Assembly (NCBI GenBank): GCA_900115795.1 | Contig: FOXT01000004.1 | Coordinates: forward strand, 319,616-343,615 | Direction: 5' to 3' | Source: Lachnospiraceae bacterium XBB1006 | GTDB taxonomy: Bacteria; Bacillota; Clostridia; Lachnospirales; Lachnospiraceae | DNA length: 24,000 nucleotides | In this document: one piece after another, positions 2,826 to 24,000 of the stretch | How positions within the stretch are numbered: position 1 is the stretch's first letter | How the letters are laid out: every line of letters begins with the position of its first letter | Notes under the pieces: model-generated | The model's database searches: none | Seen by the model: only the letters and a program-made list of their open reading frames with translations | What the model was told of the DNA's origin: nothing | Translations under genes and position numbers: made by a program

Positions 2826-4592
2826 CTACATTCTTTCCGGTGCTTCAAATCCAAGCAAATCAATACAAGTTTCCATAACACCCTTTGTTAACTCTAACAG
2901 GCGAATATAACTTCCCTGCACGGCTTCATCTTCTTCACTCATAATCTTTGTTTCATGATAAAAGTGATTGAATTTATTAGCCAATTCATAAATATATGCG
3001 CATACCTTATGTGGTGCATATTCCTCTGCTGCATTTTCAATCATTCCCTGGAAGTTCGCAAGAGCAAGCATTAATTCCTTCTCACTCTTATTCTTTGGTG
3101 GAAGTATTTCATAGCTTGCTGCATTCTTTCCACTCTCTGCATATTTTGCCAAAATAGACTTAATACGCACAATGGAGTAAAGAAGATATGGGCCGGTGTT
3201 TCCTTCGAAAGAAGTGAAACGTTCCATATCAAACACATAGTCTTTGGATGCCTGGTTTGATAAATCTCCGTATTTCAAAGCTGCCAATCCCACAATCTTT
3301 GCCGTCTTCCTTGCTTCTTCCGGATCCACGGTATGATTCTCGGTAATCTTCTTATACATCTCATCTTCAATGTCAGAAATCATATTTTCAAGACGCATAA
3401 CACCACCATCACGTGTCTTAAACGGTTTGCCGTCTTTACCGTTCATCGTACCAAAACCGATATGTGTCAGTTCCACATCATCTCTTACAAGGCCGGCTCT
3501 TCTGGTTGTTCTGAATACCTGTACAAAATGAAGTTCCTGACGTTTGTCTACCACATAAATGATTGCATCCGGATTCTGTTCTTCCCGACGCATAATAATC
3601 GTTCCAAGGTCTGTGGTGGCGTACAACGCTGCTCCATCGGATTTCTGAATGATACATGGCGGAATGTCACGTTTGTCATCCTCTTTTGCCACTTTTACAA
3701 TCAATGCTCCATCACTTTCTTCCGCAATGCCACGCTTCTTCATATCTTCAATCATGGCCGGAATGTATGGTTGCGCGTCCGATTCACCCTTCCACAAATC
3801 AAAGATAACATTCAAGTTAGCATAATTCTTCTTTAAATCCGCATGGGACAACGTCAAAATGTGTTTCAGAATTGCGGTGTATGCAGGATGACCATTCTGA
3901 AGTTCGTTAGTAATCTCAAGTGCTTCTTTCTTATATTCCGCATTCTTCTTACTTTCTGCGCTGGCAGCCGGATAAATTTCTTCCAGATCCGACAATGTAA
4001 ATGGTGGCTCTGTTGGATATTCTCCGGTAAAGTCCTTATCAAAGTATGGAAGCTCCGGTTGACGACGTTTTAATTCCGTAATAATCAAACCAATCTGAAG
4101 TCCCCAGTCTCCCAAATGTACATCACCGTAAACAGTGTTTCCGGTATAACGCAAAATACGTTTAATACTCTCTCCAATGATGGCCGGACGTAAATGTCCA
4201 ACGTGAAGTGGCTTTGCAACATTGGCTCCACCGTAATCGATAACGATGGTTCTTGGATTCTTTGCCTCTTCCACGCCAAAGCGTTCTTCTGACAACATCG
4301 TTTTCATATAATTTGCCATATAATCCGGCGACATTTTCAAGTTTAAAAATCCTGGTTTTACAGAATCCACTGTTTCAAACATTGTTTCTTTATCGAGTAC
4401 CGCTTTGATTTCATCCGCAATCATAAACGGTGCCTTATGTGCCTGCTTTGCACAAGCCATTGCACCATTGCACTGGAATTCGCAAAGGTCCGGTCGATTA
4501 CTTACTGTCACCTTACCATATTTCTCATCGTATCCACATGCTTGAAACGCATTGGAAACTACTTCGCTAATATCATCTAGTATCTTTTTCAT
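2826..4592 (-). CDS. argS: Arginine--tRNA ligase
   Basis: 588-aa ORF. Has the N-terminal ArgRS additional domain, the class-I HIGH signature (AKPLHVGHLRPAIIG), a DALR-type anticodon-binding C-terminal region, and ends ...GFEAPERM, typical of ArgRS. Confidence 0.95.
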   Translation of the reverse strand: MKKILDDISEVVSNAFQACGYDEKYGKVTVSNRPDLCEFQCNGAMACAKQAHKAPFMIADEIKAVLDKETMFETVDSVKPGFLNLKMSPDYMANYMKTMLSEERFGVEEAKNPRTIVIDYGGANVAKPLHVGHLRPAIIGESIKRILRYTGNTVYGDVHLGDWGLQIGLIITELKRRQPELPYFDKDFTGEYPTEPPFTLSDLEEIYPAASAESKKNAEYKKEALEITNELQNGHPAYTAILKHILTLSHADLKKNYANLNVIFDLWKGESDAQPYIPAMIEDMKKRGIAEESDGALIVKVAKEDDKRDIPPCIIQKSDGAALYATTDLGTIIMRREEQNPDAIIYVVDKRQELHFVQVFRTTRRAGLVRDDVELTHIGFGTMNGKDGKPFKTRDGGVMRLENMISDIEDEMYKKITENHTVDPEEARKTAKIVGLAALKYGDLSNQASKDYVFDMERFTSFEGNTGPYLLYSIVRIKSILAKYAESGKNAASYEILPPKNKSEKELMLALANFQGMIENAAEEYAPHKVCAYIYELANKFNHFYHETKIMSEEDEAVQGSYIRLLELTKGVMETCIDLLGFEAPERM

Positions 4593-4624: not shown

Positions 4625-5470
4625 CTATGCAAAAAACGCGTCACTTAGCATCATCATCCCCACGCTGTCGACGCTTCCTGTCATAATAATCTCATCTTGA
4701 TCATTCAGCTCTACGGTTAAAACTCCTCCCGGCTGACTCACCTCAACTTTGCGTTTTGTAAGTCCAAGCCGCACCGTCACTGCTGCTGCTGCACATGCAC
4801 TGGTTCCGGATGCTAACGTATAGCCGGCACCACGCTCATATACTTCAATCTCTACATGTTCTTCATCAATCACGTGAAGCAGCATAAAATTCATACGGTT
4901 TGGAAAATACTCGGAGCTTTCTACAATTGGACCTAATTCCATAACCCGCTTATAATTAACTTCCCGTGAAAGCAACGCACAATGCGGGTTACCCACGCTT
5001 AAACAAGTCACCTCATAAGGCTTACCCCCAAAGTACATAGCCTCATTAATCACTTCGCGTTCCTCACCAATGACCGGTATTGCTGATGCATGAAAATCAG
5101 CCTTTCCAATTCGGGCACGCACAAGTGTTGCATCCTCATTCAGGAATTCCACTTCTGCTTTACCACTTGCCGTGTAAAAAATCACACGTTCTTCCTTTGC
5201 ATAACCTTCATCTTTTAAATATTTGGCAAAAATACGAATGCCGGTACCGGTATTTGTTGCTTCACTTGCATCCGGGTTAAAACATCGGACATGGATCTTC
5301 CCATCTTTTTCAATTGGTCCGTACAAAATACCATCTGCACCAATGCCAAAATTTCGCTTACATAATTTGCGAATGTGGCCTTCTTGCAGCTCTACATCAT
5401 TCTTGTTCGGATCAATTACCAGATAGTCGTTCCCAAGCCCATGATACTTCTTAATCATAAATGAACCCAA
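4625..5470 (-). CDS. dapF: Diaminopimelate epimerase family protein, atypical (both catalytic Cys positions substituted)
   Basis: DapF hallmarks are present: HGLGNDY, FNPD.SE, SVGNPHC, YERGAGYT...ACAAA. The Cys73-equivalent reads NTGTG (Thr, codon 5249-5251) and the Cys217-equivalent reads LASGTS (Ser, codon 4808-4810). The start is either TTG 5470 (AGGAGG 10 nt upstream) or ATG 5458. Confidence 0.8.
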   Translation of the reverse strand: MGSFMIKKYHGLGNDYLVIDPNKNDVELQEGHIRKLCKRNFGIGADGILYGPIEKDGKIHVRCFNPDASEATNTGTGIRIFAKYLKDEGYAKEERVIFYTASGKAEVEFLNEDATLVRARIGKADFHASAIPVIGEEREVINEAMYFGGKPYEVTCLSVGNPHCALLSREVNYKRVMELGPIVESSEYFPNRMNFMLLHVIDEEHVEIEVYERGAGYTLASGTSACAAAAVTVRLGLTKRKVEVSQPGGVLTVELNDQDEIIMTGSVDSVGMMMLSDAFFA

Positions 5471-5517
5471 TTGTCTAGTTCCTCCTGCTTGTTCACTCCA
5501 ATTTTTACAGAATCGCG

Positions 5518-5937
5518 CTAGTCTACCTGATTCTGACTGATTAGAGCAGCTAGGCTATCCGCCTTCTCTCCTAATATATTCGCAGCCAGATCCTTTGTTT
5601 CCTCCGAAACGTTACCTTTTCCATAAGCACCGGAATACGAACCCGTGGTTGCATTGTAATCGCTATCGTTCACTTCTTGTTCCTGTGAAAGCTTCGCAAT
5701 CCATTCTGCTTCCTTCGCCTTCTCATCCGCCTCTGCCTCTCTTTGTAATCGTTCGAAGATTTCGTTAGCCTGTGCCAACGCTTCCGCGTCTTCCCCGCTT
5801 TCAGTGGCCGATTGTTCTTCGTCCTCCTGTGGCGTAGGCATATAACGAACGCGACTGCGCTTCACGATGGCGTGCTTTAATTCGTCGTTGAAATTGCGGA
5901 CATCAATTTTATCCGTGATTGGTGCTCTTAATTTCAA
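5518..5937 (-). CDS. Hypothetical acidic, low-complexity protein (139 aa)
   Basis: ORF with a TTG start preceded by GGGGGTG at 6-nt spacing, lying just downstream of a near-consensus sigma-A promoter. The central region is Glu/Ala/Asp-rich. I recognise no family. Confidence 0.55.
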   Translation of the reverse strand: MKLRAPITDKIDVRNFNDELKHAIVKRSRVRYMPTPQEDEEQSATESGEDAEALAQANEIFERLQREAEADEKAKEAEWIAKLSQEQEVNDSDYNATTGSYSGAYGKGNVSEETKDLAANILGEKADSLAALISQNQVD

Positions 5938-6025: not shown

Positions 6026-6054
6026 ATTATACTTGTAGAACGAAAAAAAGTCAA
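6026..6054 (-). promoter_or_regulatory. Sigma-A type promoter for the hypothetical-dapF-like-argS transcription unit
   Basis: On the minus strand: TTGACT (6054-6049), 17-nt spacer, TATAAT (6031-6026). It sits about 90 nt upstream of the TTG start at 5937. Confidence 0.65.
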
Positions 6055-6205: not shown

Positions 6206-7432
6206 TTAAAATAAATATTTCTTTTCCTCAAAAAGTGCTAAGCTTCGCTCTAATATGCCGTTCATATAGGCAATGGCTACCCCGTAATTGGTCATTGGCA
6301 CACCTTGCTGCTGTGCCTGTGCCAGACGATATTTCATCTCTTTTTCATTGAGCATGCATCCACCGCAATGAATAATCAAGTCATAGGTTGACAAGTCTTT
6401 TTCAAAGCCGGTGCCGCTGGTAAAGGCCAACTGCAATTGTTTTCCTGTATACTTCTTAAGAAGTTTTGGCAACTTCTCTGTCCCAATGTCGCCGCACTGT
6501 CGATGGTGGGTGCAGCCTTCCGAAATCAATACCTTTGCCCCATCCTGCAACCTTCCAATAGCGGCTGCTCCCTGAATCTGTTGTTTGAGATTTCCTTTTA
6601 ATCTTGCAAACAGAATAGAAAACGAAGTAAGTGGCACCTCCGCCGGAGTCAGTTTGTCCACAGTCTTAAATGCCTGGCTATCCGTTACTACCATTTTCGG
6701 CGGATTTTTCAGGCTTGCCAAGGTCTGTGGCAACGTCGTTTCCTTCGTAACCATACAGATTGCATTCCCATCTAAAATATCCCGTATGGTCTGTTGCTGT
6801 GGCAAAATCATACGTCCCTTCGGTGCCGCAGCATCAATTGGTGTTACCAATACCACCACATCCTCCGGAGCTAACAAATCCTTAATCAGATCACGTTCTG
6901 CCGTTTCCTTCATGCCTTTGGCTATGAAACTGCGTAATTCGTCTACGCCCTCTTTGGTTATAGCGCTCACAAATCGATAGGGATATTCGTTTGCCCACGA
7001 AGATTGTACAATCATTTTCTTCTGTGCTTCTACCATGGTATCCATCTTATTGATTACAATCACAAACGGCAATTTCTTATCCGTTAATTCTTGCAAAAGA
7101 CGCTTTTCCGCCGCAGATAGCCGGGCATCCTGACCATCTAATACCACAATGGCATAATCAATTCTACGCAGCACTTCAAAGCTTTTCTCAATTCGCTTCT
7201 GCCCCAATTCTCCTTCATCATCCAGTCCCGGAGTATCAATAAATACTACCGGGCCAAGTGGCAAAAGCTCCATCGCCTTCGTTACCGGATCGGTAGTGGT
7301 TCCCTTCACATCAGAAACCACCGCTAATTCCTGCCCGGTTATGGCATTTAATAAACTCGATTTTCCCGCATTCCGATTGCCAAAAATTCCGATGTGCAAC
7401 CGATTTGCGCTTGGTGTTTCGTTTAAACCCAT
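6206..7432 (-). CDS. hydF: [FeFe] hydrogenase H-cluster maturation GTPase HydF
   Basis: GIFGNRNAGKSSLLNA (G1), DTPGLDD (G3), NKMD (G4), and the C-terminal cluster-binding pattern EGCTHH...HCGGCMLN. AGGAGG overlaps the hydG stop. Confidence 0.93.
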   Translation of the reverse strand: MGLNETPSANRLHIGIFGNRNAGKSSLLNAITGQELAVVSDVKGTTTDPVTKAMELLPLGPVVFIDTPGLDDEGELGQKRIEKSFEVLRRIDYAIVVLDGQDARLSAAEKRLLQELTDKKLPFVIVINKMDTMVEAQKKMIVQSSWANEYPYRFVSAITKEGVDELRSFIAKGMKETAERDLIKDLLAPEDVVVLVTPIDAAAPKGRMILPQQQTIRDILDGNAICMVTKETTLPQTLASLKNPPKMVVTDSQAFKTVDKLTPAEVPLTSFSILFARLKGNLKQQIQGAAAIGRLQDGAKVLISEGCTHHRQCGDIGTEKLPKLLKKYTGKQLQLAFTSGTGFEKDLSTYDLIIHCGGCMLNEKEMKYRLAQAQQQGVPMTNYGVAIAYMNGILERSLALFEEKKYLF

Positions 7433-7441
7433 TTTTTCCTC

Positions 7442-8860
7442 CTAGAAACGGAAATCACGCTCACCGGCATCGATGCTGTGAATGTATTTCTTTGCCGTTT
7501 CTTTTACTTTTGGATTTGGAATTTTCTCAAGTTCTGCTTCAATCATCTTCTTACCTGCTGCTTTTACCTCATCCGAAGCATAGTCATCCAGATACTCATT
7601 TAATGTCATAAGCGCATTTGGATGGCAGCAGTTCTGAATCTGGCCGGATTTCAATAACGACATAAAGCGATCGCCGGTTCTTCCTTCACGATAGCATGCG
7701 GTACAGAACGACGGCACATAGCCCATGTCAATCAGCCAGCCTACCACTTCATCAAGGCTACGATTGTCGGATACATCAAACTGGGCAGAGTTGTCATCTT
7801 CCGCTTCTTCCTCAACATAGCCACCTACACTGGTTCTTGATCCTCCGGAAATCTGGGATACACCCAGTTCTAATACCCGTTCTCTTGTTTCTTTGGTCTC
7901 TCTCGTGGAGATAATCATTCCGGTGTACGGAACGGCTACACGGATACAAGCAACAATTTTTGCAAATATGTCATCACTAATTCCATTATCAAACGCATCC
8001 GGATCGATATCATCTGCCCGGCGTACACGTGGTACGGAAATGGTATGTGGTCCACATCCTTTATACTGTTCCAAATGCTCGGCATGCATCAATAAACCAA
8101 CAAAATCATAACGGTATAAATTCAGTCCGAATAATACACCGATTCCAACATCGTCAATGCCTCCATCCATGGCTCTGTCCATGGCTTCCGTATGATATAC
8201 GTAATTGGACTTTGGTCCTGTTGGATGCAACTTTTCATACTGTTCTTTGTTATAGGTTTCCTGGAAGAGAATATAGGTTCCAATTCCTGCTTCCTTTAAC
8301 TTACGATAGTTTTCTACTGTTGTTGCTGCAATGTTGACATTTACACGACGGATTGCGCCGTTTTTATGCTTAATGCTATAAATGGTCTTAATGCTCTCCA
8401 AAATGTACTCTAACGGATTATTTACCGGGTCTTCTCCTGCTTCTAATGCTAATCGTTTGTGTCCCATATCCTGAAGTGCAATCACTTCCTGACGAATTTC
8501 TTCCTGCGTCAGTTTTTTTCTTGCAATGTGTTTGTTTTTTAAGTGGTATGGACAATACTCACATCCATTTACACAATAGTTTGACAAATACAGTGGTGCA
8601 AACATAACGATACGATTTCCATAAAAATCTAGCTTAATCTGTTTTGCCAATGCATAAATTTCCTGGTTTTTTTCCTCGATATCGCAATCAAGAAGCACTA
8701 GCGCTTCTCTATGAGTAAGTCCCTTTCTTAATTTTGCTTTTTCAATGATTTCACTAATTAACTTCTCATTGTGCTTATTTTCTTCGGCATACTTTAGTGT
8801 TTCAAGAATTTCTTCATGATTGATGAATTCCTCTGCGTTTGGTGACATTACATTGTACAT
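7442..8860 (-). CDS. hydG: [FeFe] hydrogenase H-cluster radical SAM maturase HydG
   Basis: 472 aa. Radical-SAM CVNGCEYCPY motif and a C-terminal auxiliary-cluster region (SFCTACYREGRTGDRFM...CHPNALMTL), typical of HydG (ThiH-like). Confidence 0.93.
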   Translation of the reverse strand: MYNVMSPNAEEFINHEEILETLKYAEENKHNEKLISEIIEKAKLRKGLTHREALVLLDCDIEEKNQEIYALAKQIKLDFYGNRIVMFAPLYLSNYCVNGCEYCPYHLKNKHIARKKLTQEEIRQEVIALQDMGHKRLALEAGEDPVNNPLEYILESIKTIYSIKHKNGAIRRVNVNIAATTVENYRKLKEAGIGTYILFQETYNKEQYEKLHPTGPKSNYVYHTEAMDRAMDGGIDDVGIGVLFGLNLYRYDFVGLLMHAEHLEQYKGCGPHTISVPRVRRADDIDPDAFDNGISDDIFAKIVACIRVAVPYTGMIISTRETKETRERVLELGVSQISGGSRTSVGGYVEEEAEDDNSAQFDVSDNRSLDEVVGWLIDMGYVPSFCTACYREGRTGDRFMSLLKSGQIQNCCHPNALMTLNEYLDDYASDEVKAAGKKMIEAELEKIPNPKVKETAKKYIHSIDAGERDFRF

Positions 8861-8872
8861 AGTTCTTTCTCC

Positions 8873-9919
8873 TTATCTTTTATCTTTTTGCGGATCTCCG
8901 CGATCTACTACAAGTTCATATCCGATGCTTTGCATTCGGTTATTTAAACAATTTCGACATTCTGCTGCTTCATCCCCCGTGCAAATCTTATTGTCGTATA
9001 ATTCATACTTCTTCCGCACGTTTGTAGGTGACAGATTCGGCATTACTACATTGGCGCCGGCCAACATTCCTTTTTCTCTTCCTCTTGGGTCGATGGTTCC
9101 AAGTGCGGTAGTTGCCGGTAAAAGCAGGTTCGGTTTTAGCAAGCGCAGCAGCGACAATAAATACAACGTCTGGTTTACGGTTCCACCTTTTTCTTTCGCA
9201 AACGGTGTATCATGATGCGGTACAAACGGTCCGATTCCCACCATGTCCGGCTGCAGTGCTTCAATAAATTTCATATCTTTCGCCAGCGTTTTTGCCGTCT
9301 GTCCGGGAGAACCTACCATAAATCCACATCCCACCTGATAACCAATTTCCTTCAAATCCCATAGGCACTTCATACGATGCTTTAAGGACAATTCTTTCGG
9401 ATGCAGTGTTTCATAATGTGCCTCCTCCGCAGTCTCATGCCGCAGCAAATAGCGGTCTGCTCCCGCTTCAAAAAATCGTTGGTAACTTTCCTTTTCTTTC
9501 TCTCCAACAGACAAGGTCAGTGCACATTCCGGGTAGCCTTCCTTGATTTTACGGATAATGGAAACCATTCGCTCATCGGTATAGTATCCGTCTTCTCCTC
9601 CTTGTAAAACAAAGGTACGAAATCCTAATTCATAGCCCTGGCGGCAGCAGTCCAAAATCTGTTCCTCTGTTAATCGATATCGATTCGCATTTCCATTGCT
9701 TCGACGAATGCCACAATAAAGACAATCATTCTTGCAGTAATTGGTAAACTCAATGAGGCCTCTGGTAAACACCTGCTTTCCATAGATTTGTTCTCTAAGA
9801 TTCTTTGCCCGTTCTGCCGCATACGCACTTAATTCCTCTGTCTGTCCTGCAATTAACTCCTCCCACTGATTTTCTGTCAGCGATTCGCCCGCTGCTACCA
9901 TGTCAATTAACCTTTTCAT
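8873..9919 (-). CDS. hydE: [FeFe] hydrogenase H-cluster radical SAM maturase HydE
   Basis: CKNDCLYCGIRRSN radical-SAM motif in a BioB-like protein located in the hyd maturase operon. The ORF track starts at GTG 9925; I prefer ATG 9919 (GAAGGA 9 nt upstream). Confidence 0.9.
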   Translation of the reverse strand: MKRLIDMVAAGESLTENQWEELIAGQTEELSAYAAERAKNLREQIYGKQVFTRGLIEFTNYCKNDCLYCGIRRSNGNANRYRLTEEQILDCCRQGYELGFRTFVLQGGEDGYYTDERMVSIIRKIKEGYPECALTLSVGEKEKESYQRFFEAGADRYLLRHETAEEAHYETLHPKELSLKHRMKCLWDLKEIGYQVGCGFMVGSPGQTAKTLAKDMKFIEALQPDMVGIGPFVPHHDTPFAKEKGGTVNQTLYLLSLLRLLKPNLLLPATTALGTIDPRGREKGMLAGANVVMPNLSPTNVRKKYELYDNKICTGDEAAECRNCLNNRMQSIGYELVVDRGDPQKDKR

Positions 9920-9933
9920 TCCCACTGTTCCTT

Positions 9934-15609: not shown

Positions 15610-16809
15610 CTACAAAAGAGAATGAATTACGCCATCCCTGCACTGATTCGGGGTAATGCCATAAGGCAGATTCTTAGAATCCATCATATTATGCGCACCC
15701 AAAAATCCCCCAGGCTCAAATGGAAACATGGCCGTATCATACATATTCCCAAGACCGGAAACGATTTTTACAAGGACTACCTTGCGCTTACCGTAACGAC
15801 GAATATTGTGAAAAACGTTTACGGAAGCAGGTTCTACTTCCAACGCCAGAAGCACCTTGCGCAACTTTCCTGCCACACGATCTGCGAAGCGATGTGCCTC
15901 CATGATTCCTTCTGCGCTACGTCCATGACCTTCCTGAAAGGTAACATCCACGTGGATTAGATAATCGGTAGTCGCCGGTATTCCTGCCCTGTCAAACACC
16001 ACCTGATTTTTCAAAAGGCCCTCGGAAGAACCAATATTACTTGGTTGAAAGCCCCCTTCTTCTGCACCGGTCACCATCATGGTTACCCCCGTCATAAGTC
16101 TGGTAATACCTTCTCCTAATTCCCCTTCTTCCTTTGCCGCAATAGGGAAAAAGTCCAAATTAGAGTTTACAAAAAGATGAGTTTGCCCGGGGTCAAGAAC
16201 CGTTACCTTTACCTCTTTAAGGTACGTTTCATCATAAGGAACGTCCAAAATATCCGCAGGTAATAAATCCGGTGAAAACGGATATCGCTTTTGTATCAAT
16301 GTTCCCACTATCTGTTCCGCAATCGTTTCCGAAGTAACCTCTTTACCGGCACGCTTTAATTTCAGTTTTACCAATCCTACCGCTTTTTTGGCATCATAAT
16401 CCGTCAGGTTATTATCGCCTACCACACAGGATTCGTAACCACTTACATTTTTGTTAAAATCCACGATGCAATCCACATAGTCATTATCACAGACTAACCG
16501 TCCCTGCTGACCGATATAGCTTAAGCCGACTGCCGGAATTCCACGACGACCTAATTCCTCAATTACAGAAACAAAATCCACATGATGATTTCCCCAGCCA
16601 TCAATGGCAACCACCGCCGCGTCTGCCTGCATGAGCCTTGCCAAATCCGCGGTGCGTTTTGCTGTGTATTCTTTATCATCGCAAACCTCCGATACCCCGT
16701 CTATGATAATACCGGTAAATTCCAAATCTTTATCTTCTGACAACGCTTTTGTCATCGGGCAGAAAAAATGATGCTTCGTCGTCATTTTGATACTTGGTCC
16801 TAGTCCCAT
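15610..16809 (-). CDS. PrdA-paralogous protein: PrdE-like (alpha-like) domain fused N-terminal to PrdD-like (beta-core-like) domain
   Basis: Start at ATG 16809 with AGGAGG 6 nt upstream, giving 399 aa. The N-terminal half aligns by eye with the PrdA C-terminal fragment, and the C-terminal half aligns with the PrdA segment preceding the cleavage site (see findings). The longer ORF-track start at 17061 overlaps prdB and is rejected. Confidence 0.8.
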   Translation of the reverse strand: MGLGPSIKMTTKHHFFCPMTKALSEDKDLEFTGIIIDGVSEVCDDKEYTAKRTADLARLMQADAAVVAIDGWGNHHVDFVSVIEELGRRGIPAVGLSYIGQQGRLVCDNDYVDCIVDFNKNVSGYESCVVGDNNLTDYDAKKAVGLVKLKLKRAGKEVTSETIAEQIVGTLIQKRYPFSPDLLPADILDVPYDETYLKEVKVTVLDPGQTHLFVNSNLDFFPIAAKEEGELGEGITRLMTGVTMMVTGAEEGGFQPSNIGSSEGLLKNQVVFDRAGIPATTDYLIHVDVTFQEGHGRSAEGIMEAHRFADRVAGKLRKVLLALEVEPASVNVFHNIRRYGKRKVVLVKIVSGLGNMYDTAMFPFEPGGFLGAHNMMDSKNLPYGITPNQCRDGVIHSLL

Positions 16810-16833
16810 AACCATCCTCCTTTTGAAAAATGC

Positions 16834-16872
16834 AAAAAATCGAGCGCGAGAACCCCGCAAGGAGTTCTCCGC
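16834..16872 (-). terminator. Intra-operon intrinsic terminator/attenuator between prdB and the PrdE/D-like gene
   Basis: Minus strand: GCGGAGAACTCC-TTGC-GGGGTTCTC(G)CGC, about 12 bp and GC-rich with a tetraloop, followed by TCGATTTTTTGCA. It lies 20 nt after the prdB stop and about 25 nt before the next RBS. Confidence 0.6.
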
Positions 16873-16891
16873 CCGAAATTTTATCATTACC

Positions 16892-17614
16892 TTATACGTT
16901 ATGTCTGTACTCGTACGGTAATACCTTTGTCTGGTTGTAGCTTGGGCAATCACGAACCCACTCAAGAGATTCTTTGATGATTGCTGTCTGCATGGCTTTA
17001 TTGTTTGGCTCACCGGCATTGGATCCGATTGGCACATGTGGTGCTGTGATACGAGGTGCACCCTGCTGTCTTGCGATTGGAGGTAAAGCAGCGATAACTA
17101 CGCAGCTCATACCAGCTTCTTCACAGCAACGGGTTACGATGGTTGCAGAACGATGACAGGTTCCACATCCTCCGGTACAAAGAACGATATCAACGCCTTG
17201 TGCTTTTAATTTCTTAGCAATTTCCGGACCGGTTTCGTTGGTGAACTTCTCAACATTTCCGCCGCCACCCATGAAGGTGTAGGTTTCATCGGAAAGAGAA
17301 CCAATGAATCCCTCGTCTACCAATTCATGAAGACGATCGATTGGGAACATTGCATTTACGTCCTTGTTGATATCGGAGTTATCAAATCCACCATGTGTAA
17401 CCATCAAATTATCGGATGGAGTATTAAACTCGATGGTACGATAGGAGAAATCTCCGGATGTGTTAAATGGTGTCTGATCTTTTTTATGAATACCACCAGC
17501 AGTGATAAAAGCAACTTTACACTCGCTTAATGGTTTCTTTAATTCTGTAAATACCGGCTTTGGTACAACCGGTACAAAAATTTCGGATTGCATTCCTTCT
17601 TTGGTTGTAAGCAT
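16892..17614 (-). CDS. prdB: D-proline reductase subunit PrdB, Cys-containing (non-selenoprotein) form
   Basis: The 240-aa product matches PrdB throughout as I recall it (EIFVP..., MVTHGGFDNSDINKD.N.MFPIDRLHEL, FMGGGGN, IAALPP..R..G.PR...P.VP.G.NAGEPNN). The redox motif reads CTGGCGTCHRS, with TGT (17165-17167) where PrdB selenoproteins carry UGA. Confidence 0.88.
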   Translation of the reverse strand: MLTTKEGMQSEIFVPVVPKPVFTELKKPLSECKVAFITAGGIHKKDQTPFNTSGDFSYRTIEFNTPSDNLMVTHGGFDNSDINKDVNAMFPIDRLHELVDEGFIGSLSDETYTFMGGGGNVEKFTNETGPEIAKKLKAQGVDIVLCTGGCGTCHRSATIVTRCCEEAGMSCVVIAALPPIARQQGAPRITAPHVPIGSNAGEPNNKAMQTAIIKESLEWVRDCPSYNQTKVLPYEYRHNV

Positions 17615-17627
17615 TTATGTATCCTCC

Positions 17628-18068
17628 TTAAATTGACTCTACTGGAATGTCGCGTTTTCCTACGGCATTCATACAACTGAAATAAAACTGAACGTCCTGT
17701 CCAACTTCTAATGCCACCGGCGTAAACATCCATCGACGCGGAACCGCAATGGTTCCCATGTCGTTCATAATGGCAATTTTCGCAGCCGTGTCGTTTACTT
17801 CAATTATTTTTCCACCCAACAAGCATGGGCTGATTTCATGGCTTGTCACCATATCGCCACTATCGTAGTCATATGGATTTTCCATCACTTCGATATAGCT
17901 AAAGTAAAATTCCATCTCCGTACCCGGTTCTATTGGTTCATCGAATTTTATCAGTTTCTCAGGTACGCAAATTACTCCGAGTCGACCGTGCAGATGGACT
18001 TTAATCATGCCATTCGATACCTCTTTTACCAGGCCGCCCATTTTGATTGGGTTAATCATATATTCCAT
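17628..18068 (-). CDS. Small prd-operon protein with two tandem homologous domains (probably the CBO2463/CBO2479-domain family found between prdA and prdB)
   Basis: 146 aa. Its ATG overlaps the prdA stop (TAATG at 18070-18066). Two roughly 55-aa repeats are visible (GGLVKEV...GVICVP...GTEMEFYFS and GGKIIEV...GTIAVP...GQDVQFYFS). The family name is from memory. Confidence 0.6.
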   Translation of the reverse strand: MEYMINPIKMGGLVKEVSNGMIKVHLHGRLGVICVPEKLIKFDEPIEPGTEMEFYFSYIEVMENPYDYDSGDMVTSHEISPCLLGGKIIEVNDTAAKIAIMNDMGTIAVPRRWMFTPVALEVGQDVQFYFSCMNAVGKRDIPVESI

Positions 18069-19876
18069 TAGTGTAAGGTTCCGTTATCCAATAATACTGT
18101 TTCCGGAAGTCCTAATAACTTGTTATTTGCATTGATAACATCGTTATTCCATTTCTTTTCAGCTGGTTTGATTTCTACACCTGCCATCTTGTTCTTCAAC
18201 ATCTGAATTGCACGGGCTGCAACCTCTTTTGTTACACAAGAACATCCTGCAACGTTATTCTCAAATCCACCCTTATCCATATTTTCTTCTACCATGGCAG
18301 TTGCATACTTGTTTCCAACTACAAGCTGTCCCTGGTAAGCACAGAAGGATACACCAACAACCGGGATACCACGTTTTCCAGCCTGTCCAATGTGCTGTAC
18401 AAAATCGATATGGTTATTTCCAAATCCTTCGGTTGTAATGATACATCCATCGATATCAAGAGACTCAAGTAAGAATCCAAGTCTTTCGGATACCCATAAT
18501 TTTTCATCATTTACCTGTGGGCTTCCTACACATACAACACCGATTAAGTCAAGTTCGGAATCTGCTGCAAGTCCTTCTACGAGCGGCTCACGAATATAAT
18601 GACGGGTCATTTCTTTTGTAGCCGGTCCAATACAGGTTAAAGCATGGATAGAACCGTCTCTTACCTGGTTTGGTGTTAACATAATTGGCACGTTTCCGCA
18701 GTCAACGTTCTTCTGTCCACCAAGGATTCCACATGGCTCATTCGGGCAGATTACGTTATCATGCATAGCACCCTGTCCCATGATTTCTTTTACTAATACA
18801 ACACGTGGGTTACCTGCTCTACGTACGTCTTCACATACTTCTTCACGAACAACTTCACCTTCGTAATTCTTTAATACTTCACGAATTGCCTGGATGATGT
18901 AATCCTGACATTTGTGTGCTGCAAATGGGCCAGGTCTGGTCATACCGGTTAATCTTTCGATTACCGCATGGCAACGAATAATAATATCGTTTTCATCTGC
19001 ACATCCCGGATGTCCAAAATACATCTTCTCATCTAAGTATCCTTCAGATGATCCAAACTCATGTACCTGTACGCCGTCTTCATCAACACCTGTTAACATG
19101 AATACAACACCATCAAGTACTTTGGTTACACCTTCACCAAGCTCTCCCTCTACTTTTGTAGCGATTGGGCAAACGTCCATAATGGTTTCTGTGTAAATGT
19201 GTCTCTTGTCCGGATAGATTACATCAAGCTCTAAGGATTTACATAATGCGTCTTCCAAAACCGCTTTATCTGTCAACTTCTTGTCGATAGTTAATTTTCC
19301 ATCTTTCAAAGATGTTTCGTTTCCGATTTCTACGTCGGTAATCTTAATATGTTTTTTCAGTAATGTACGAATTACTTTCTTTTCTCCTGTTGGTAATGCT
19401 TTTTCTGCAGTTGTTGCTTCTGCAGGCATTCCCTCTGTGCAAACTGCACCATTTACTGCTCCAACCGGAACATCCAGTCTTAAGCCCTCAATCTTATCGG
19501 CTTTATCAATTTCAATATGAATCATGCCATTTCCTCCTACGGTTGTCTTAACCTTTGGTGCAATCACATTCTTTGGTGTGCTTGCAACTTCCGGTGCTGC
19601 CTGTTTTGGTGCTGCCTCGGTTTCATTTACCTTATCAAGCACTTCTCTGGTAATTGGTGTTAACGCCTCAACGTCTGTCAAAAGCGTACTTCCAAGTACC
19701 TGTTCAATCTTAAGTCCATCTGGACTTAATGTAAGAAGACCAGCCTCTACCATATCATCAAAAAGACTTGGATCTTCTAAGTCTGCAGCACTGATAACCA
19801 ATCCTTTTTCTCTTCTGCAGCAGAAAATTGCAGGATCTTTCAAGTGCTGTTGTAATGTCTCATTTGTAATTGACAT
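18068..19876 (-). CDS. prdA: D-proline reductase proprotein PrdA (pyruvoyl enzyme precursor)
   Basis: The N-terminus MSITNETLQQHLKDPAIFCCR resembles C. sticklandii/C. difficile PrdA. Has the conserved EGELGEG core. The putative self-cleavage site ...DGSIHALT|CIGPATKE has Cys415 (TGT, 18632-18634), leaving a 188-aa alpha fragment. Confidence 0.9.
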   Translation of the reverse strand: MSITNETLQQHLKDPAIFCCRREKGLVISAADLEDPSLFDDMVEAGLLTLSPDGLKIEQVLGSTLLTDVEALTPITREVLDKVNETEAAPKQAAPEVASTPKNVIAPKVKTTVGGNGMIHIEIDKADKIEGLRLDVPVGAVNGAVCTEGMPAEATTAEKALPTGEKKVIRTLLKKHIKITDVEIGNETSLKDGKLTIDKKLTDKAVLEDALCKSLELDVIYPDKRHIYTETIMDVCPIATKVEGELGEGVTKVLDGVVFMLTGVDEDGVQVHEFGSSEGYLDEKMYFGHPGCADENDIIIRCHAVIERLTGMTRPGPFAAHKCQDYIIQAIREVLKNYEGEVVREEVCEDVRRAGNPRVVLVKEIMGQGAMHDNVICPNEPCGILGGQKNVDCGNVPIMLTPNQVRDGSIHALTCIGPATKEMTRHYIREPLVEGLAADSELDLIGVVCVGSPQVNDEKLWVSERLGFLLESLDIDGCIITTEGFGNNHIDFVQHIGQAGKRGIPVVGVSFCAYQGQLVVGNKYATAMVEENMDKGGFENNVAGCSCVTKEVAARAIQMLKNKMAGVEIKPAEKKWNNDVINANNKLLGLPETVLLDNGTLH

Positions 19877-19895
19877 CCCTTTTTCCTCCTTTTTT

Positions 19896-21203
19896 TTATT
19901 TTTTTATTGCTCTAACGATTTTGTGGTTCACTGCACGCAACGCGCCATCTGTGCAGTGATAAACCGGTAATCCCATTTTTGGAGCGCAAGACATAACGGT
20001 GTTGGAACAATCTGTACAATTTCCAATCAAAACTGCCTGTGCACCGGCTTTCTTCAATGCCATGACCTTCTGTACCTGACCCGGGCATCTTCCCGGATTC
20101 TCGCATTTCAAGTTTCCATTTACTTCCTTTGCCTGCTTACAGCATTCAACTCCTACAACCTTTGAACCAAGGCTTTCTGCCAACTGATGCATACGCTCTT
20201 TGTTTGCACCGCAAGCACAAACCAAAAGTCCAATTTTTTCCGGTCCTTTCGGGAAACATTCTGCAGCAATTAAGCCTCCGGTTGTCTTCACAACCACATC
20301 TTCCATGGTCGTTCTCTTTCCGGTAAACGGTCCACCCATAATAAGTTCGCCGCAATCCGGATTAACGCCCCCTGCACGGTCAAACATGGTTTGCACCGGT
20401 GTTCCAATTGCTACATCCATGAAAACCTGTACCAACTTATCCTGCGCATTTCCGGCAATTTTACCACCCACGGTCATATCCTTGTCGATCAACGGTTTCT
20501 TCTCATCTACCGCTTCTGCTATTCTACATGCCGTTTCTGCATTGATTACAATGGCATTTGCCTCAAGCGGAAGTGCCGTTACCGGCAAAACCTCACCAAA
20601 TACTTCACGAATAATCGCACGCTCTTCCCCCATTGGATACATATCAATTAATGGAACAATTCGCATTCCTTTATAATTTCCAAGGATTTTTCTCAACGCA
20701 TCGATTGCTTCCTTATGGTACTCTTTGATGGCCACCACGCCGTTTGTTGCCCCCGCTACTTCCATAGCAATTTCAAGTCCACGTAAGAGCTGTTCCGGTC
20801 TTTTCTCTATACGCGCAATATTATGAGAAAGAATCGGTTCGCACTCCGCTGCATTGATAATAACGGTTCCTTTTTCGCCTAATGGTTTTGAAAACTTTGC
20901 ATACGTCGGGAATCCCGCGCCACCAAGTCCAACCAAACCCGCCTCTTCAATCAGCTCAAGCGGTTTCTTCTTTTTCAGCTTTACATAGCCGGCACTCTGC
21001 TTTTCATCCGGGTCCACAACAATTTCTGTTTCATTCACAGAAACAACGGTACCTGCGATACTGGAAAAAATATTGGCCCCCAAGCCATCCTGCGGCTTTG
21101 CCGCTATCATCTCTCCACGTTTCACCTTTGCTCCGGTCTGTATTACAGCAACCGACGGCTTTCCTATACACTGTTTCAGAGGAAAACGGTAAAGTTCTGA
21201 CAT
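19896..21203 (-). CDS. prdC: Proline reductase-associated electron transfer protein PrdC (RnfC-like)
   Basis: 435 aa. RnfC/NuoF-like LVGLGGAGFPTYAKF...IINAAECEPIL region, Cys-rich C-terminus, located directly upstream of prdA. GGAGGAG lies 6 nt upstream of the ATG. Confidence 0.85.
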   Translation of the reverse strand: MSELYRFPLKQCIGKPSVAVIQTGAKVKRGEMIAAKPQDGLGANIFSSIAGTVVSVNETEIVVDPDEKQSAGYVKLKKKKPLELIEEAGLVGLGGAGFPTYAKFSKPLGEKGTVIINAAECEPILSHNIARIEKRPEQLLRGLEIAMEVAGATNGVVAIKEYHKEAIDALRKILGNYKGMRIVPLIDMYPMGEERAIIREVFGEVLPVTALPLEANAIVINAETACRIAEAVDEKKPLIDKDMTVGGKIAGNAQDKLVQVFMDVAIGTPVQTMFDRAGGVNPDCGELIMGGPFTGKRTTMEDVVVKTTGGLIAAECFPKGPEKIGLLVCACGANKERMHQLAESLGSKVVGVECCKQAKEVNGNLKCENPGRCPGQVQKVMALKKAGAQAVLIGNCTDCSNTVMSCAPKMGLPVYHCTDGALRAVNHKIVRAIKK

Positions 21204-21328: not shown

Positions 21329-22207
21329 ATGGATAATCTAGTTAAATACAAATTGTTTTCTATTACCGCCCAAACCGGTAATATTTCCAAAACTGCAGAA
21401 ATGACAGGCTATACCCAATCCGGGGTCAGTCACACCCTCAAGCGCTTAGAAGAGGAAGTAAATATGCAGCTATTTATTCGAGACCGCTATGGTGTGCGTC
21501 TTACTCCGGTGGGGAAAGAATTTCTACGCTATGTAAACAGTCTCCTCTCCGAAGAGGAAAAATTACGCCAATTCGTTTACGATACCAATGGCATCGAATA
21601 TGGCACACTAACCATCGGCACCTATACCAGTATCTGTACCCATCTACTTCCTACGTTGTTAAATGACTTCCACGAGGACCATCCCGGCATTCAGATTAAG
21701 CTTCGAGAAGGTGGAATCAAAGAATTGGAGAATTGGCTAAATCGCCGGGAAGTTGACATGATTTTTTGCAGTCGGCAGGACAATGCCAATTATTCCTTTC
21801 ATCCGTTGAAGAAAGACGCATTCATGGCCGTATTGCCGAAAGATTATGAGATTGAAAAGGATACGTTTCCCATTGTTTCCTTCCAGAATACCCCCTCGAT
21901 TCTCCCGGAAGCAGAAGTGGATTCTGACATCTATACACTATTAAAGGAGCAGCATGTCACTCCGCAGATTCGTTACACCGCCAAGGAAAACCTTACCATC
22001 CTTGCAATGGTGGATAAACACTTGGGTATCTCCATAATCCCTGCTCTGGCACTTGAGAATTCCCCCTGGGATATCCATGCACTGCCACTTCACCCTCCTT
22101 ACGCCAGGGAACTTGGAATCGGCTATTTGGACGATGAAAGCCTTTCTCCCATCGGGAAAAAATTTCTTTGGTTTGTACAGGAATATTTTCCCTGCAAAGA
22201 AGAATAA
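21329..22207 (+). CDS. LysR-family transcriptional regulator, divergent from the prd operon
   Basis: MDNLVKYKLFSITAQTGNISKTAEMTGYTQSGVSHTLKRLEEE is a LysR-type HTH, followed by a substrate-binding domain. I place the start at ATG 21329 (CAGGAG 5 nt upstream) rather than TTG 21272. Confidence 0.88.
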   Translation: MDNLVKYKLFSITAQTGNISKTAEMTGYTQSGVSHTLKRLEEEVNMQLFIRDRYGVRLTPVGKEFLRYVNSLLSEEEKLRQFVYDTNGIEYGTLTIGTYTSICTHLLPTLLNDFHEDHPGIQIKLREGGIKELENWLNRREVDMIFCSRQDNANYSFHPLKKDAFMAVLPKDYEIEKDTFPIVSFQNTPSILPEAEVDSDIYTLLKEQHVTPQIRYTAKENLTILAMVDKHLGISIIPALALENSPWDIHALPLHPPYARELGIGYLDDESLSPIGKKFLWFVQEYFPCKEE

Positions 22208-22231
22208 TACACGGCAAAATTGGGCATCCTA
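22202..22231 (+). promoter_or_regulatory. Forespore-type (sigma-G/sigma-F-like) promoter candidate for sigG
   Basis: GAATA (22202-22206), 18 nt, CATCCTA (22225-22231). This fits the B. subtilis sigma-G consensus GHATR-N18-CATXHTA as I recall it. The -35 overlaps the LysR stop codon. Confidence 0.4.
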
Positions 22232-22263
22232 TTTTCAAAGAATCGAAAAGGGGATGTCTTTTT
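22222..22263 (+). terminator. Hairpin plus T5 after the LysR gene whose 3' arm contains the sigG Shine-Dalgarno
   Basis: GGGCATCC-TA-TTTTC (22222-22236) pairs with GAAAA-GG-GGATGTC (22245-22258), one G-U pair, 8-nt loop. This is followed by TTTTT and then the sigG ATG at 22264. Confidence 0.5.
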
Positions 22264-23037
22264 ATGTCAGTATATAAAGTTGATCTCTGTGGCGTAAACA
22301 CTGCCACCTTACCCCTATTGAATGATGACGAAAAAAAGGTACTATTCGATAAAATCAAAGACGGCGACACCGAAGCAAAAGAAACTTACATTCGAGGAAA
22401 TCTACGATTGGTACTCAGTGTCATCAAACGCTTTTCCTCTTCCGGTGAAAACGCAGATGATTTATTTCAAATTGGTTGCATTGGGCTTCTAAAATCCATC
22501 AATAATTTCGACCCTACCTTAGGCGTTAAATTTTCAACCTATGCCGTTCCCATGATTATTGGGGAAATTCGACGTTATTTACGAGATAATAATACAATTC
22601 GCGTTAGCCGCTCTCTAAAGGATCGCGCCTACAAAATCATGGTTGCCAAAGAGGCTTTTCGTAAAGAACATCAAAAAGAACCTACCTTTGCCGAACTTTC
22701 TTCCCTCACAGGCTTTACCGAAGATGAAATTCTTTACTGCCTCGATGCCATGCAAAATCCTCTAAGCCTCTACGACCCCGTTTATAACGATGGGGACGAT
22801 ACCCTCTACGTCATGGACCAGGTACGCGACAAAAAGAATACGGAAGATCACTGGCTGTTAAACCTATCGCTAAAAGAGGCACTTGAACAATTAAATGATC
22901 GTCAGCAGGATATTATAACCAAGCGCTTTTTGCAAGGAAAGACCCAGATGGAAGTTGCCGAAGAAATTCATATTTCTCAGGCACAAGTATCCCGCCTCGA
23001 AAAGAGTGCATTAAAAAGCATGAGAGCCCATCTTTAG
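22264..23037 (+). CDS. sigG: Sporulation sigma factor SigG (forespore, late)
   Basis: [20 protein letters not shown]...[13 protein letters not shown]...[31 protein letters not shown]...[23 protein letters not shown] is nearly collinear with B. subtilis SigG. Start at ATG 22264, not 22168. Confidence 0.9.
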
Positions 23038-23753
23038 CTCTCATGCTTCACCATATCCTTATGCAATTGCCGTATGATTCGCTTTTCAATGCGCGAAATA
23101 TAGGATTGCGAAATTCCTAACTCATCTGCAACCTCTTTTTGCGTTCGCGGTTCTTTTCCGGTTAATCCATAACGCAATTCAATGATAAACCGTTCTCTTT
23201 TGTTCAAGTTGTGAAGCGCTTCATTCAAAAGGGTTCGTTCTGCTTCCTGCTCCATCCCTTTTTCCACTACATCCTCACCGGTTCCCAGTATATCAGACAA
23301 AAGAAGCTCATTTCCATCCCAATCTACATTTAGCGGTTCATCAATGGATACCTCCAACTTATGTTTACTCGCTCTTCTTAAATACATCAAAATCTCGTTT
23401 TCAATGCAGCGTGAAGCATAGGTAGCCAGTTTAATCTGTTTTTCCGGATTATAGGTATCGACCGCCTTCATAAGACCAATGGTGCCAATAGATATCAAAT
23501 CCTCTACCCCAATTCCGGTGTTATCAAATTTCTTGGCTATGTAAACCACCAACCGTAAATTATGTTCAATCAGACAGATTTTCGCATCCGGATCCTTTTT
23601 TTCGTAAAGCAATCGAATGCAATCCGCTTCTTTTCTCGCGTCCAACGGCGGTGGCAGTACCTCTGCACCCCCAATATAGTGAATCTGTGCCTGTCGCTTA
23701 ATAAACAGTCCCCGTATCTTTGGTAAAACACTTCTTGCTACGATTTTTTGCAT
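23034..23753 (-). CDS. sigE: Sporulation sigma factor SigE (pro-sigma-E, mother cell, early)
   Basis: ...[12 protein letters not shown]...[13 protein letters not shown]...[20 protein letters not shown]...[23 protein letters not shown]...[15 protein letters not shown] match B. subtilis SigE, including an N-terminal pro-sequence. Start at ATG 23753 (AGGAGGAG upstream). Confidence 0.9.
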
Positions 23754-23776
23754 AATTACTCCTCCTAACATTCTTT

Positions 23777-24000
23777 CTATCCTGTATGCACATGCTTTTG
23801 ATGCAATAAAACCCGACAGGCCGGCTCCTTGAATGTCCATCGCTTGCTAATGCCAATCCTCGGTTTCGGATATGTATACCACTGCCCATTTACATAAACC
23901 GATACCCCATCCACCTTAATGGTATCCATTACCTCATTTGCAGCCATCGTGGTAAAACATACCGGATACTTTGGTTTTTTATAAATCTGCAAAATCGGTT
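23777..24000 (-). CDS. spoIIGA: Sigma-E processing peptidase SpoIIGA, C-terminal end (5' part outside window)
   Basis: The reading frame is open to the right edge, ends 23 nt upstream of sigE, and its tail (...RIGIS...[11 protein letters not shown]) resembles the SpoIIGA C-terminus. Synteny with sigE supports the call. Confidence 0.6.

Follow-up and report, generated by a model that had tools for sequence, protein, structure and literature searches.

A DapF-family protein of Lachnospiraceae bacterium XBB1006 with threonine and serine in place of both catalytic cysteines, and its place in an apparently undescribed branch of the family

The DNA analysed here (the window) is a 24,000-nucleotide (nt) stretch of contig FOXT01000004.1 from Lachnospiraceae bacterium XBB1006 (assembly GCA_900115795.1, positions 319,616 to 343,615), and all window positions are 1-based within the whole of it. 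The minus strand carries, in order of transcription, hydE, hydG and hydF, an acidic open reading frame (ORF) of 139 amino acids (aa), dapF, argS, sdaAB and sdaAA. The subject of this analysis is the dapF gene, which starts at a TTG codon at 5470, with an alternative ATG at 5458, and encodes a homologue of diaminopimelate epimerase (DapF). DapF is the standard example of a cofactor-independent racemase that works with two thiols, and in the window protein both of these thiols are absent, their places being taken by Thr74 and Ser221. The features of the dapF region are collected in Table 1. Homologues are named below by the residues at their first and second catalytic sites (Cys/Cys, Ser/Ser, Thr/Ser), and P and L numbers are our labels for individual proteins and loci.

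Table 1. Coordinates of the dapF region and of the diagnostic codons within the window
Feature	Position	Strand	Basis or remark
argS (arginyl-tRNA synthetase), conserved partner of dapF	2826..4592	-	begins 32 nt past the dapF stop
DapF-family coding sequence of the hydroxyl-pair (Thr74/Ser221) type, 281 aa	4625..5470	-	ORF, profiles, alignments, model
Codon 224, AGT (Ser), class-specific; Gly220 in Cys/Cys enzymes	4799..4801	-	class comparison
Codon 221, TCC (Ser), at the position of catalytic Cys217	4808..4810	-	gap-free alignment
Codon 76, ACC (Thr), in place of Asn75	5243..5245	-	sub-clade comparison
Codon 74, ACC (Thr), at the position of catalytic Cys73	5249..5251	-	gap-free alignment
Codon 16, TAT (Tyr), in GNDY; Phe in Cys/Cys enzymes	5423..5425	-	class comparison
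Ribosome-binding site AGGAGG	5481..5486	-	10 nt before the TTG start; read from the sequence
Acidic ORF, 139 aa, conserved in Lachnospiraceae just upstream of dapF	5518..5937	-	ORF and locus comparison
Promoter-like site TTGACT-17-TATAAT (11/12 matches), upstream of the 139-aa ORF	6026..6054	-	motif scan; suggestive

The ORF is confirmed as a full-length DapF homologue in which both catalytic cysteines have been replaced. The protein matches the Pfam family DAP_epimerase (PF01678) with an E-value of 1.1e-50. Its score on TIGR00652, the NCBIfam equivalog model for DapF, is 219.8 bits where the cutoff is 114.65, and the motifs HGLGNDY, FNPDASE, GNPHC, ERGAGYT and SACAAA were all found. Phmmer alignments to the E. 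coli DapF chains 6d13, 4ik0 and 5ygu run without gaps across both catalytic motifs; FNPDASEATNTGTGIRI pairs with FNADGSEVAQCGNGARC and ERGAGYTLASGTSACAAA pairs with ERGAGETQACGSGACAAV, which sets Thr74 against Cys73 and Ser221 against Cys217. The AlphaFold model of the protein (predicted local distance difference test score 94.6, predicted template-modelling score 0.91) contains helices at residues 75-87 and 222-234, and Thr74 and Ser221 directly precede these active-site helices in the same way as the cysteines of DapF. Its closest fold match is the Anabaena DapF 9MRO (template-modelling score, TM, 0.90), and the top matches are all DapF. The first-pass annotation, which was made from the sequence alone, had described a natural loss of both thiols on an otherwise intact DapF scaffold, and the residues and codon positions that it named (5249-5251 and 4808-4810) proved exact. 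By sequence and fold, with two homologous alpha/beta domains and scores over the curated cutoffs, the protein is a member of DapF, and by the catalytic thiol/thiolate pair Cys73 and Cys217 it is not.

Two ways of recovering a catalytic cysteine were tried and rejected. A relocated residue is not available, as C37, C164 and C226 of the window protein are equally conserved in Cys/Cys DapFs, so that none is a substitute, and the Ser/Ser class gains no conserved cysteine of its own. A local shift of the alignment that would restore a cysteine is ruled out by the gap-free motifs and by the placement of Thr74 and Ser221 in the model. The protein has no match to PF05544 (Pro_racemase) at E <= 0.01 and only a distant fold likeness to that family (11-16% identity); it likewise has no match to PF02567 (PhzF), for which the fold matches are at 11-12% identity.

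The residues that bind 2,6-diaminopimelate (DAP) are all retained. These are N14, N65, N161, N194, E212, R213 and T223, equivalent to N11, N64, N157, N190, E208, R209 and S/T219 of E. coli, and they match the contacts made with aziDAP or DAP by the DapF proteins of Anabaena (PMC12039745) and C. glutamicum (PMC5296763). In E. coli numbering, conservation is 90% or higher at N11, N64, N157, H159, N190, E208 and R209, and this holds for the Ser/Ser class as well as for the Cys/Cys class. The unchanged side chains that contact DAP argue for free DAP as the probable ligand. The two classes differ at E. coli position 13, which is Tyr in 95% of Ser/Ser proteins versus Phe in 93% of Cys/Cys proteins, and the other Ser/Ser-class changes in this numbering are C73 to S, C79 to I, C217 to S and G220 to S. 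Position 192 is Gln in the Ser/Ser class, Glu in most Cys/Cys relatives and Gly in E. coli. A hydroxyl-pair signature was defined here as GNDY ... (S/T)G(N/T)GxR(I/M) ... ERGxGYTxxSG(S/T), which the window protein carries as GNDY, TGTGIRI and ERGAGYTLASGTS with the deviations S74T and N76T, and the protein scores 335 bits on a Ser/Ser profile versus 283 on a Cys/Cys profile. The tyrosine of GNDY, Tyr16, lies two residues past Asn14 on the same beta-strand of the model, and because of this spacing it should face the same side as Asn14, which contacts the substrate alpha-amine beside Cys73.

The replacement is not confined to this genome. All 120 of the nearest homologues (51-95% identity, mostly from metagenome-assembled genomes, MAGs, of Lachnospiraceae) lack both cysteines; 99 are Ser/Ser, 20 are Thr/Ser with the same TGTG loop as the window protein and one is Gly/Ser. 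An exhaustive search of 1.84 billion 50%-cluster representatives was also performed, and the best 150 were typed as 117 Ser/Ser, 15 ordinary Cys/Cys and a few mixed. The Ser/Ser profile, built from 44 diverse Ser/Ser proteins, recovered a further 120 proteins, every one of them carrying the Ser/Ser signature, and the metagenome loci were Ser/Ser in 80 of 80 cases. Ser/Ser members come from Lachnospiraceae, Negativicutes, Spirochaetes, Planctomycetes, Deltaproteobacteria, WOR-3 and Nostoc, and further source names include Sporomusa, Lucifera, Anaerosporomusa, Veillonellales, Leclercia adecarboxylata and a Candidatus Midichloriaceae MAG. In a neighbour-joining tree computed after masking of both catalytic columns, 136 of the 137 hydroxyl-pair sequences, the window protein among them, fell into one clade of 145 leaves with 0 Cys/Cys members and the mixed types nested inside. 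Because the hydroxyl-pair sequences form a single clade, the Thr/Ser protein is, by this tree, a local variant of an old and broad Ser/Ser branch, which the first-pass annotation had not noticed. No description of a natural Ser/Ser DapF was found in literature searches, and no entry of the PDB scores as a member of the Ser/Ser family, the best being canonical DapFs at approximately 34% identity; the hydroxyl-pair clade is apparently a very large, undescribed branch of the DapF family.

Three mixed proteins lie within the hydroxyl-pair clade, namely P0214 (Ser/Cys), P0217 (Thr/Cys) and P0245 (Cys/Ser), with loci L023 and L024, and these rare combinations of Cys with Ser or Thr may be reversions or intermediates. 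With the Cys/Cys profile, the named sources among the best 120 of 8000 matches were Atribacteria, Armatimonadota, Halanaerobiales, Peptococcaceae and unclassified Clostridia MAGs, and no Lachnospiraceae were present among those 120.

The dapF gene is under purifying selection. Compared with its three closest relatives, the ratio of nonsynonymous to synonymous substitution rates (dN/dS) is 0.027-0.035, dS being close to saturation. Codon 74 of these relatives is ACT, ACC, ACG, ACA or TCC and codon 221 is TCC, TCT, TCG or TCA. A codon tally over 100 distinct Ser/Ser genes with DNA gave AGY (76), TCN (16) and the Thr codons ACN (8) at the first site and TCN (84), AGC (15) and TGC (1) at the second, and about 99% of clade members have Ser or Thr at both sites. 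A change from one serine codon family to the other takes two nucleotide steps, by way of either Thr or Cys. The first site is AGC in other Lachnospiraceae and ACN or TCC in the window clade, which fits a path from AGC through ACC to TCC along which the hydroxyl would never have been lost. Since the hydroxyl has been kept through the switches of serine codon family, the hydroxyl itself is under selection, and such selection fits poorly with an inactive catalytic site. The divergence rates of DapF and ArgRS are about equal, and dapF behaves as a vertically inherited core gene.

A link to the genes of DAP, lysine and peptidoglycan metabolism is seen for the clade, in fusions, an operon and a dapL neighbour, and not at the window locus. 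Ser/Ser DapF is fused to the diaminopimelate decarboxylase LysA in P0170 and P0208 (360 and 410 bits on TIGR01048, cutoff 297.9), to a partial decarboxylase domain in P0248 and to MurE in P0165 (451 bits on TIGR01085), the last of these on two independent contigs. Alanine-racemase-like (Alr) domains are fused to it in P0131 and P0160, and its other fusion partners are a GGACT domain, a methyltransferase and a GNAT domain. A dapB-dapA-dapF-aminotransferase operon with overlapping stops and starts is encoded at L025 and L026; its dapA and dapB pass their equivalog cutoffs, and the aminotransferase scores best on the LL-DAP aminotransferase models, below their cutoffs. At L112, dapL (639 bits on NF004937, cutoff 585) directly precedes the Ser/Ser dapF, dapA-dapB follows it at L065, L082 and L083, and alr lies 28 nt upstream of it at L086. 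Judged by these gene arrangements, the Ser/Ser branch is woven into the metabolism of DAP, lysine and peptidoglycan.

Other neighbours recur beside Ser/Ser dapF. A dapF ORF was callable in 65 of the 80 metagenome loci, and in approximately 10 of the 65 a small GNAT acetyltransferase gene is translationally coupled to it, with gaps mostly of -52 to +30 nt (among them L034, L037, L039, L042, L043, L044, L050 and L087). A GNAT gene also lies upstream of dapF in Lucifera butyrica (L028, 6508-6945), and P0222 is a fusion of GNAT to the DapF domain. In L030-L032 (7001-10187) the Ser/Ser dapF and a Peptidase_S51 gene overlap, with MR_MLE (dipeptide-epimerase-like) fragments after the peptidase gene, and in L017 (8001-11113) a LysA-DapF(Ser/Ser) fusion is encoded beside a YkfC-like NlpC/P60 endopeptidase and Opp-type oligopeptide transporters. 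The last two contexts hint at salvage of murein peptides or DAP.

The window protein is most likely a thiol-independent LL/meso-DAP epimerase, or at least a protein that handles DAP, rather than a dehydratase-like enzyme. The narrower reading, in which it is a DAP epimerase that works without thiols and is part of a large clade not described before, is given a probability of about one half. A little more tentative is the proposal for the branch as a whole, namely that it is a large, ancient and unrecognised clade of thiol-free, cofactor-independent DAP epimerases that use Ser/Ser (here Thr/Ser), probably with a Tyr relay, for a 1,1-proton transfer at an amino-acid alpha-carbon that is not activated. 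Established directly were the substitutions, the fold, the intact DAP pocket, the action of purifying selection, the breadth of the clade and its monophyly, and the dap/lys/mur linkage, and from them we infer catalytic competence and mechanism.

In the proposed mechanism, members of the branch would bind DAP in the canonical pocket, the domains would close, and LL-DAP and meso-DAP would be interconverted for the synthesis of lysine and peptidoglycan. The hydroxyls of Thr74 and Ser221 would flank the alpha-carbon from the N-termini of helices 75-87 and 222-234, one serving as alkoxide base and the other donating the proton within a closed, desolvated site. Tyr16 is the obvious candidate to generate or relay the alkoxide, and the class-specific Ser224 probably also helps. 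Canonical DapF is reversibly inactivated under oxidation by a disulfide between its two catalytic cysteines (PMC5296763). Unlike it, the window active site is unable to form an inactivating disulfide, and the immunity of a thiol-free site could, speculatively, have offered a selective advantage.

A number of observations weigh against a working epimerase. We know of no cofactor-independent amino-acid racemase with an oxygen/oxygen acid/base pair. Engineered Cys-to-Ser changes in racemases of the DapF fold hinder catalysis and serve to trap inactive open forms (PMC11602996, PMC12039745), and replacing Cys by Ala leaves C. glutamicum DapF almost without activity (PMC5296763). At the window locus dapF adjoins argS and no dap gene, and an Rfam search of the window identified neither a lysine riboswitch nor a T-box. 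The first catalytic loop is itself remodelled in the window sub-clade, which has 28 members: the Asn75 column is Thr in 28 of 28, compared with Asn in 347 of 347 main Ser/Ser and 16 of 16 Cys/Cys proteins, and the further departures of the sub-clade from the family are G67 to A, E to T72, S to T74 (68% of members) and Q to M196. Threonine, like asparagine, is a good helix-capping residue. The N85A mutant of C. glutamicum DapF, which matches the Asn75 site, is nearly inactive (PMC5296763), and in the Anabaena structure only the backbone NH of the Asn75 equivalent contacts the DAP carboxylate (PMC12039745). Activity may be weakened or changed, above all in the window sub-clade with its otherwise invariant Asn75 replaced.

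The distribution of the Ser/Ser copies also counts against the epimerase reading. They occur in taxa that are expected to own a canonical DapF, such as Nostoc and the enterobacterium Leclercia, the DapF of Anabaena being Cys/Cys (PMC12039745), and the Sporomusa Ser/Ser protein is labelled 'dapF 1'. The Ser/Ser dapF of Leclercia adecarboxylata (L012, 10001-10861) adjoins an MFS transporter gene and that of Nostoc sp. FACHB-152 (L027, 7001-7858) adjoins a Uma2-family gene; judged by the expected canonical DapF and by the neighbours, both copies are accessory paralogues. As a canonical DapF is expected in several Ser/Ser-bearing taxa, the Ser/Ser copy need not be the working epimerase. No second dapF was found in the window or in the 117 fetched loci. 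In a curated reconstruction of gut genomes, Lachnospiraceae are listed with one or two DapF genes, of either the Ser/Ser or the Cys/Cys type, and frequently also with Ddh, the meso-DAP dehydrogenase (examples with both are Anaerostipes, Blautia and Butyrivibrio crossotus), and 'Bacteroides' pectinophilus has one DapF, of either type, next to dapL with Ddh absent. The Alr-like domains fused to Ser/Ser DapF could themselves epimerise DAP, as members of the recently confirmed DapF2 type, which depends on pyridoxal 5'-phosphate (PLP).

These points feed an alternative that is unlikely but carries real weight, in which the protein is a non-catalytic or very slow DAP-binding paralogue, acting as a sensor, regulator or partner subunit, while epimerisation is carried out by a canonical DapF or by DapF2, or is bypassed by Ddh. 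The hindered Cys-to-Ser mutants of the DapF fold, the linkage of the window gene to argS instead of dap genes, the co-occurrence with canonical DapF at the level of the taxon (Nostoc, Leclercia, Sporomusa) and the many gut Lachnospiraceae listed with Ddh and one or two DapF genes all fit it, and E. coli DapF does act non-enzymatically, as a partner of RppH (PDB 6D13). E. coli grows without defect when dapF is deleted (bioRxiv 10.1101/2024.10.14.618325), and a weak activity might therefore suffice. A pure DAP-binding protein, however, would not require hydroxyls at the two catalytic sites together, and Ser or Thr is kept at both in approximately 99% of members across phyla; the helper residues H159 and E208 are conserved as well, and the dapB-dapA-dapF-aminotransferase operon, the dapL-dapF pair and the LysA and MurE fusions are what would be expected of a pathway enzyme.

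Less probable again is that the protein converts DAP, or a closely analogous compound, in another way, for example by a one-directional stereoinversion of the kind catalysed by EcL-DER, an elimination, an isomerisation or a reaction of an acyl-DAP. It would account for the joint change of both acid/base residues with the class-specific F13Y, C79I and G220S and for the remodelled first loop of the window sub-clade with N75T, and it could draw on the GNAT coupling at approximately 10 of 65 loci, the GNAT gene of Lucifera butyrica and the GNAT-DapF fusion, as well as on the Peptidase_S51/MR_MLE and YkfC-like/Opp neighbours. Related folds have diverged to new substrates or reactions, as in HisR, CntK, DcsC, PhzF and hydroxyproline dehydratase. 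Yet all side chains that contact DAP are unchanged, DAP offers no beta leaving group for a dehydratase-type reaction and no thiol base remains, and the strongest contexts (dapA, dapB, dapL, lysA, murE) call for plain LL-to-meso epimerisation. The first-pass annotation had proposed a pseudoenzyme or a changed reaction. An altered or weakened activity is possible, and neither a pseudoenzyme nor a dehydratase-like enzyme is favoured, given the monophyly of the clade, the kept hydroxyls, the DAP pocket and the pathway linkage. The analogy it drew to the hydroxyproline dehydratases does not hold mechanistically: one Cys is retained as the base in those enzymes and none remains here, and the window protein lacks a Pro_racemase match. 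A sequencing or assembly artefact, or a decaying pseudogene, is extremely improbable: the ORF is intact with a dN/dS of approximately 0.03, the model is of high confidence, and the Thr/Ser residues recur in 11 independent MAG loci, the close Lachnospiraceae loci from the contig scan, and in many metagenome proteins.

In comparison with known systems, the proposed thiol-independent epimerase is closest to canonical DapF (EC 5.1.1.7) of E. coli, H. influenzae, Anabaena and C. glutamicum, with which it shares the two-domain fold (TM 0.80-0.90, approximately 34% identity), the DAP-binding residues, the TIGR00652 pass and, in its relatives, the dap/lys/mur contexts. It differs by Thr74/Ser221 for the Cys pair, Cys79 to Ile, Phe13 to Tyr, Gly220 to Ser and, within its sub-clade, Asn75 to Thr. 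The C73S and C217S variants of H. influenzae DapF (PDB 2Q9H and 2Q9J) have the same fold with Ser at a catalytic site and are among the best structural matches, but they are single, crippling laboratory substitutions, whereas the hydroxyl pair described here is natural, present at both sites, co-varying and clade-wide. EcL-DER is a natural Thr/Cys aspartate/glutamate racemase that is still active, in one direction (PMC8142540); it shares the natural Cys-to-Thr change and differs in having the fold of the Asp/Glu racemase superfamily and in keeping one Cys. In trans-3-hydroxy-L-proline dehydratase, a Cys/Thr member of the proline racemase family with a distant fold likeness (TM approximately 0.74, approximately 11% identity), the Cys-to-Thr change alters the chemistry, but that enzyme belongs to Pfam Pro_racemase, keeps one Cys base and acts on a substrate with a beta-OH leaving group. 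DapF2 is a PLP-dependent, Alr-like DAP epimerase (Ashniev 2022, PMC9026213; GapMind 2026 preprint). It shows that DAP can be epimerised without thiols and that DapF is replaceable, though its fold is unrelated and a cofactor is needed, and it is relevant here through the Alr-like domains fused to Ser/Ser DapF domains. The DapF-fold paralogues HisR and CntK (histidine racemases) and DcsC (O-ureidoserine racemase) keep Cys/Cys and have a changed pocket, the reverse of the hydroxyl-pair branch.

DapF is an antibiotic target, and the best compounds against it work by alkylating its catalytic cysteines. Should the Ser/Ser clade prove active, a thiol/thiolate pair would not be the general requirement it is taken to be, a large share of anaerobic bacteria, including Lachnospiraceae of the gut and rumen, would have an inherent insensitivity to oxidative switch-off and to DapF inhibitors directed at thiols, and the clade would provide a natural system for the deprotonation of carbon acids by alkoxide or tyrosinate bases. 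If it is inactive, thousands of genes annotated as 'diaminopimelate epimerase' would be mis-annotated, because Ser/Ser proteins pass the TIGR00652 equivalog cutoff, and reconstructions of the lysine pathway in the gut and rumen would need another epimerase or a Ddh route.

The arrangement around the window gene is conserved in the family. The small-ORF-dapF-argS order is held in Lachnospiraceae from 95% down to approximately 50% DapF identity. The 139-aa ORF has no Pfam or NCBIfam match. An ORF of approximately 140-170 aa lies at the same place in the Lachnospiraceae loci (L001-L011 and L113-L117), again down to approximately 50% DapF identity, and it is fast-evolving (41-92% identity). Given its position 32 nt upstream of argS in a conserved arrangement, dapF is very probably expressed. 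The earlier suggestion that it is co-transcribed with argS from a near-consensus promoter is supported as to expression; the TTGACT-17-TATAAT element is the only strong promoter-like site, it lies upstream of the 139-aa ORF and not of dapF itself, and the regional count of such sites does not exceed the shuffle expectation.

The [FeFe]-hydrogenase maturation genes hydF, hydG and hydE (6206-9925, minus strand) lie directly upstream of the small-ORF-dapF-argS group, a linkage that is kept in the closest relatives. Further along the window, a glycine/sarcosine/betaine-reductase-like cluster (GrdB, component B) is encoded with an RnfC-like gene at 15610-21203 on the minus strand. Two ORFs of this cluster, 15610-17061 and 16892-17614, overlap, and no in-frame TGA joins the ORFs of the Grd-like genes at 15610-19876 as would be seen with selenocysteine read-through. 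Two genes for sigma-70-family factors, at 22168-23037 on the plus strand and 23034-23840 on the minus strand, are convergent and overlap by 4 nt, and a sigma factor gene is also found near dapF-argS in other Lachnospiraceae (L014 and L113).

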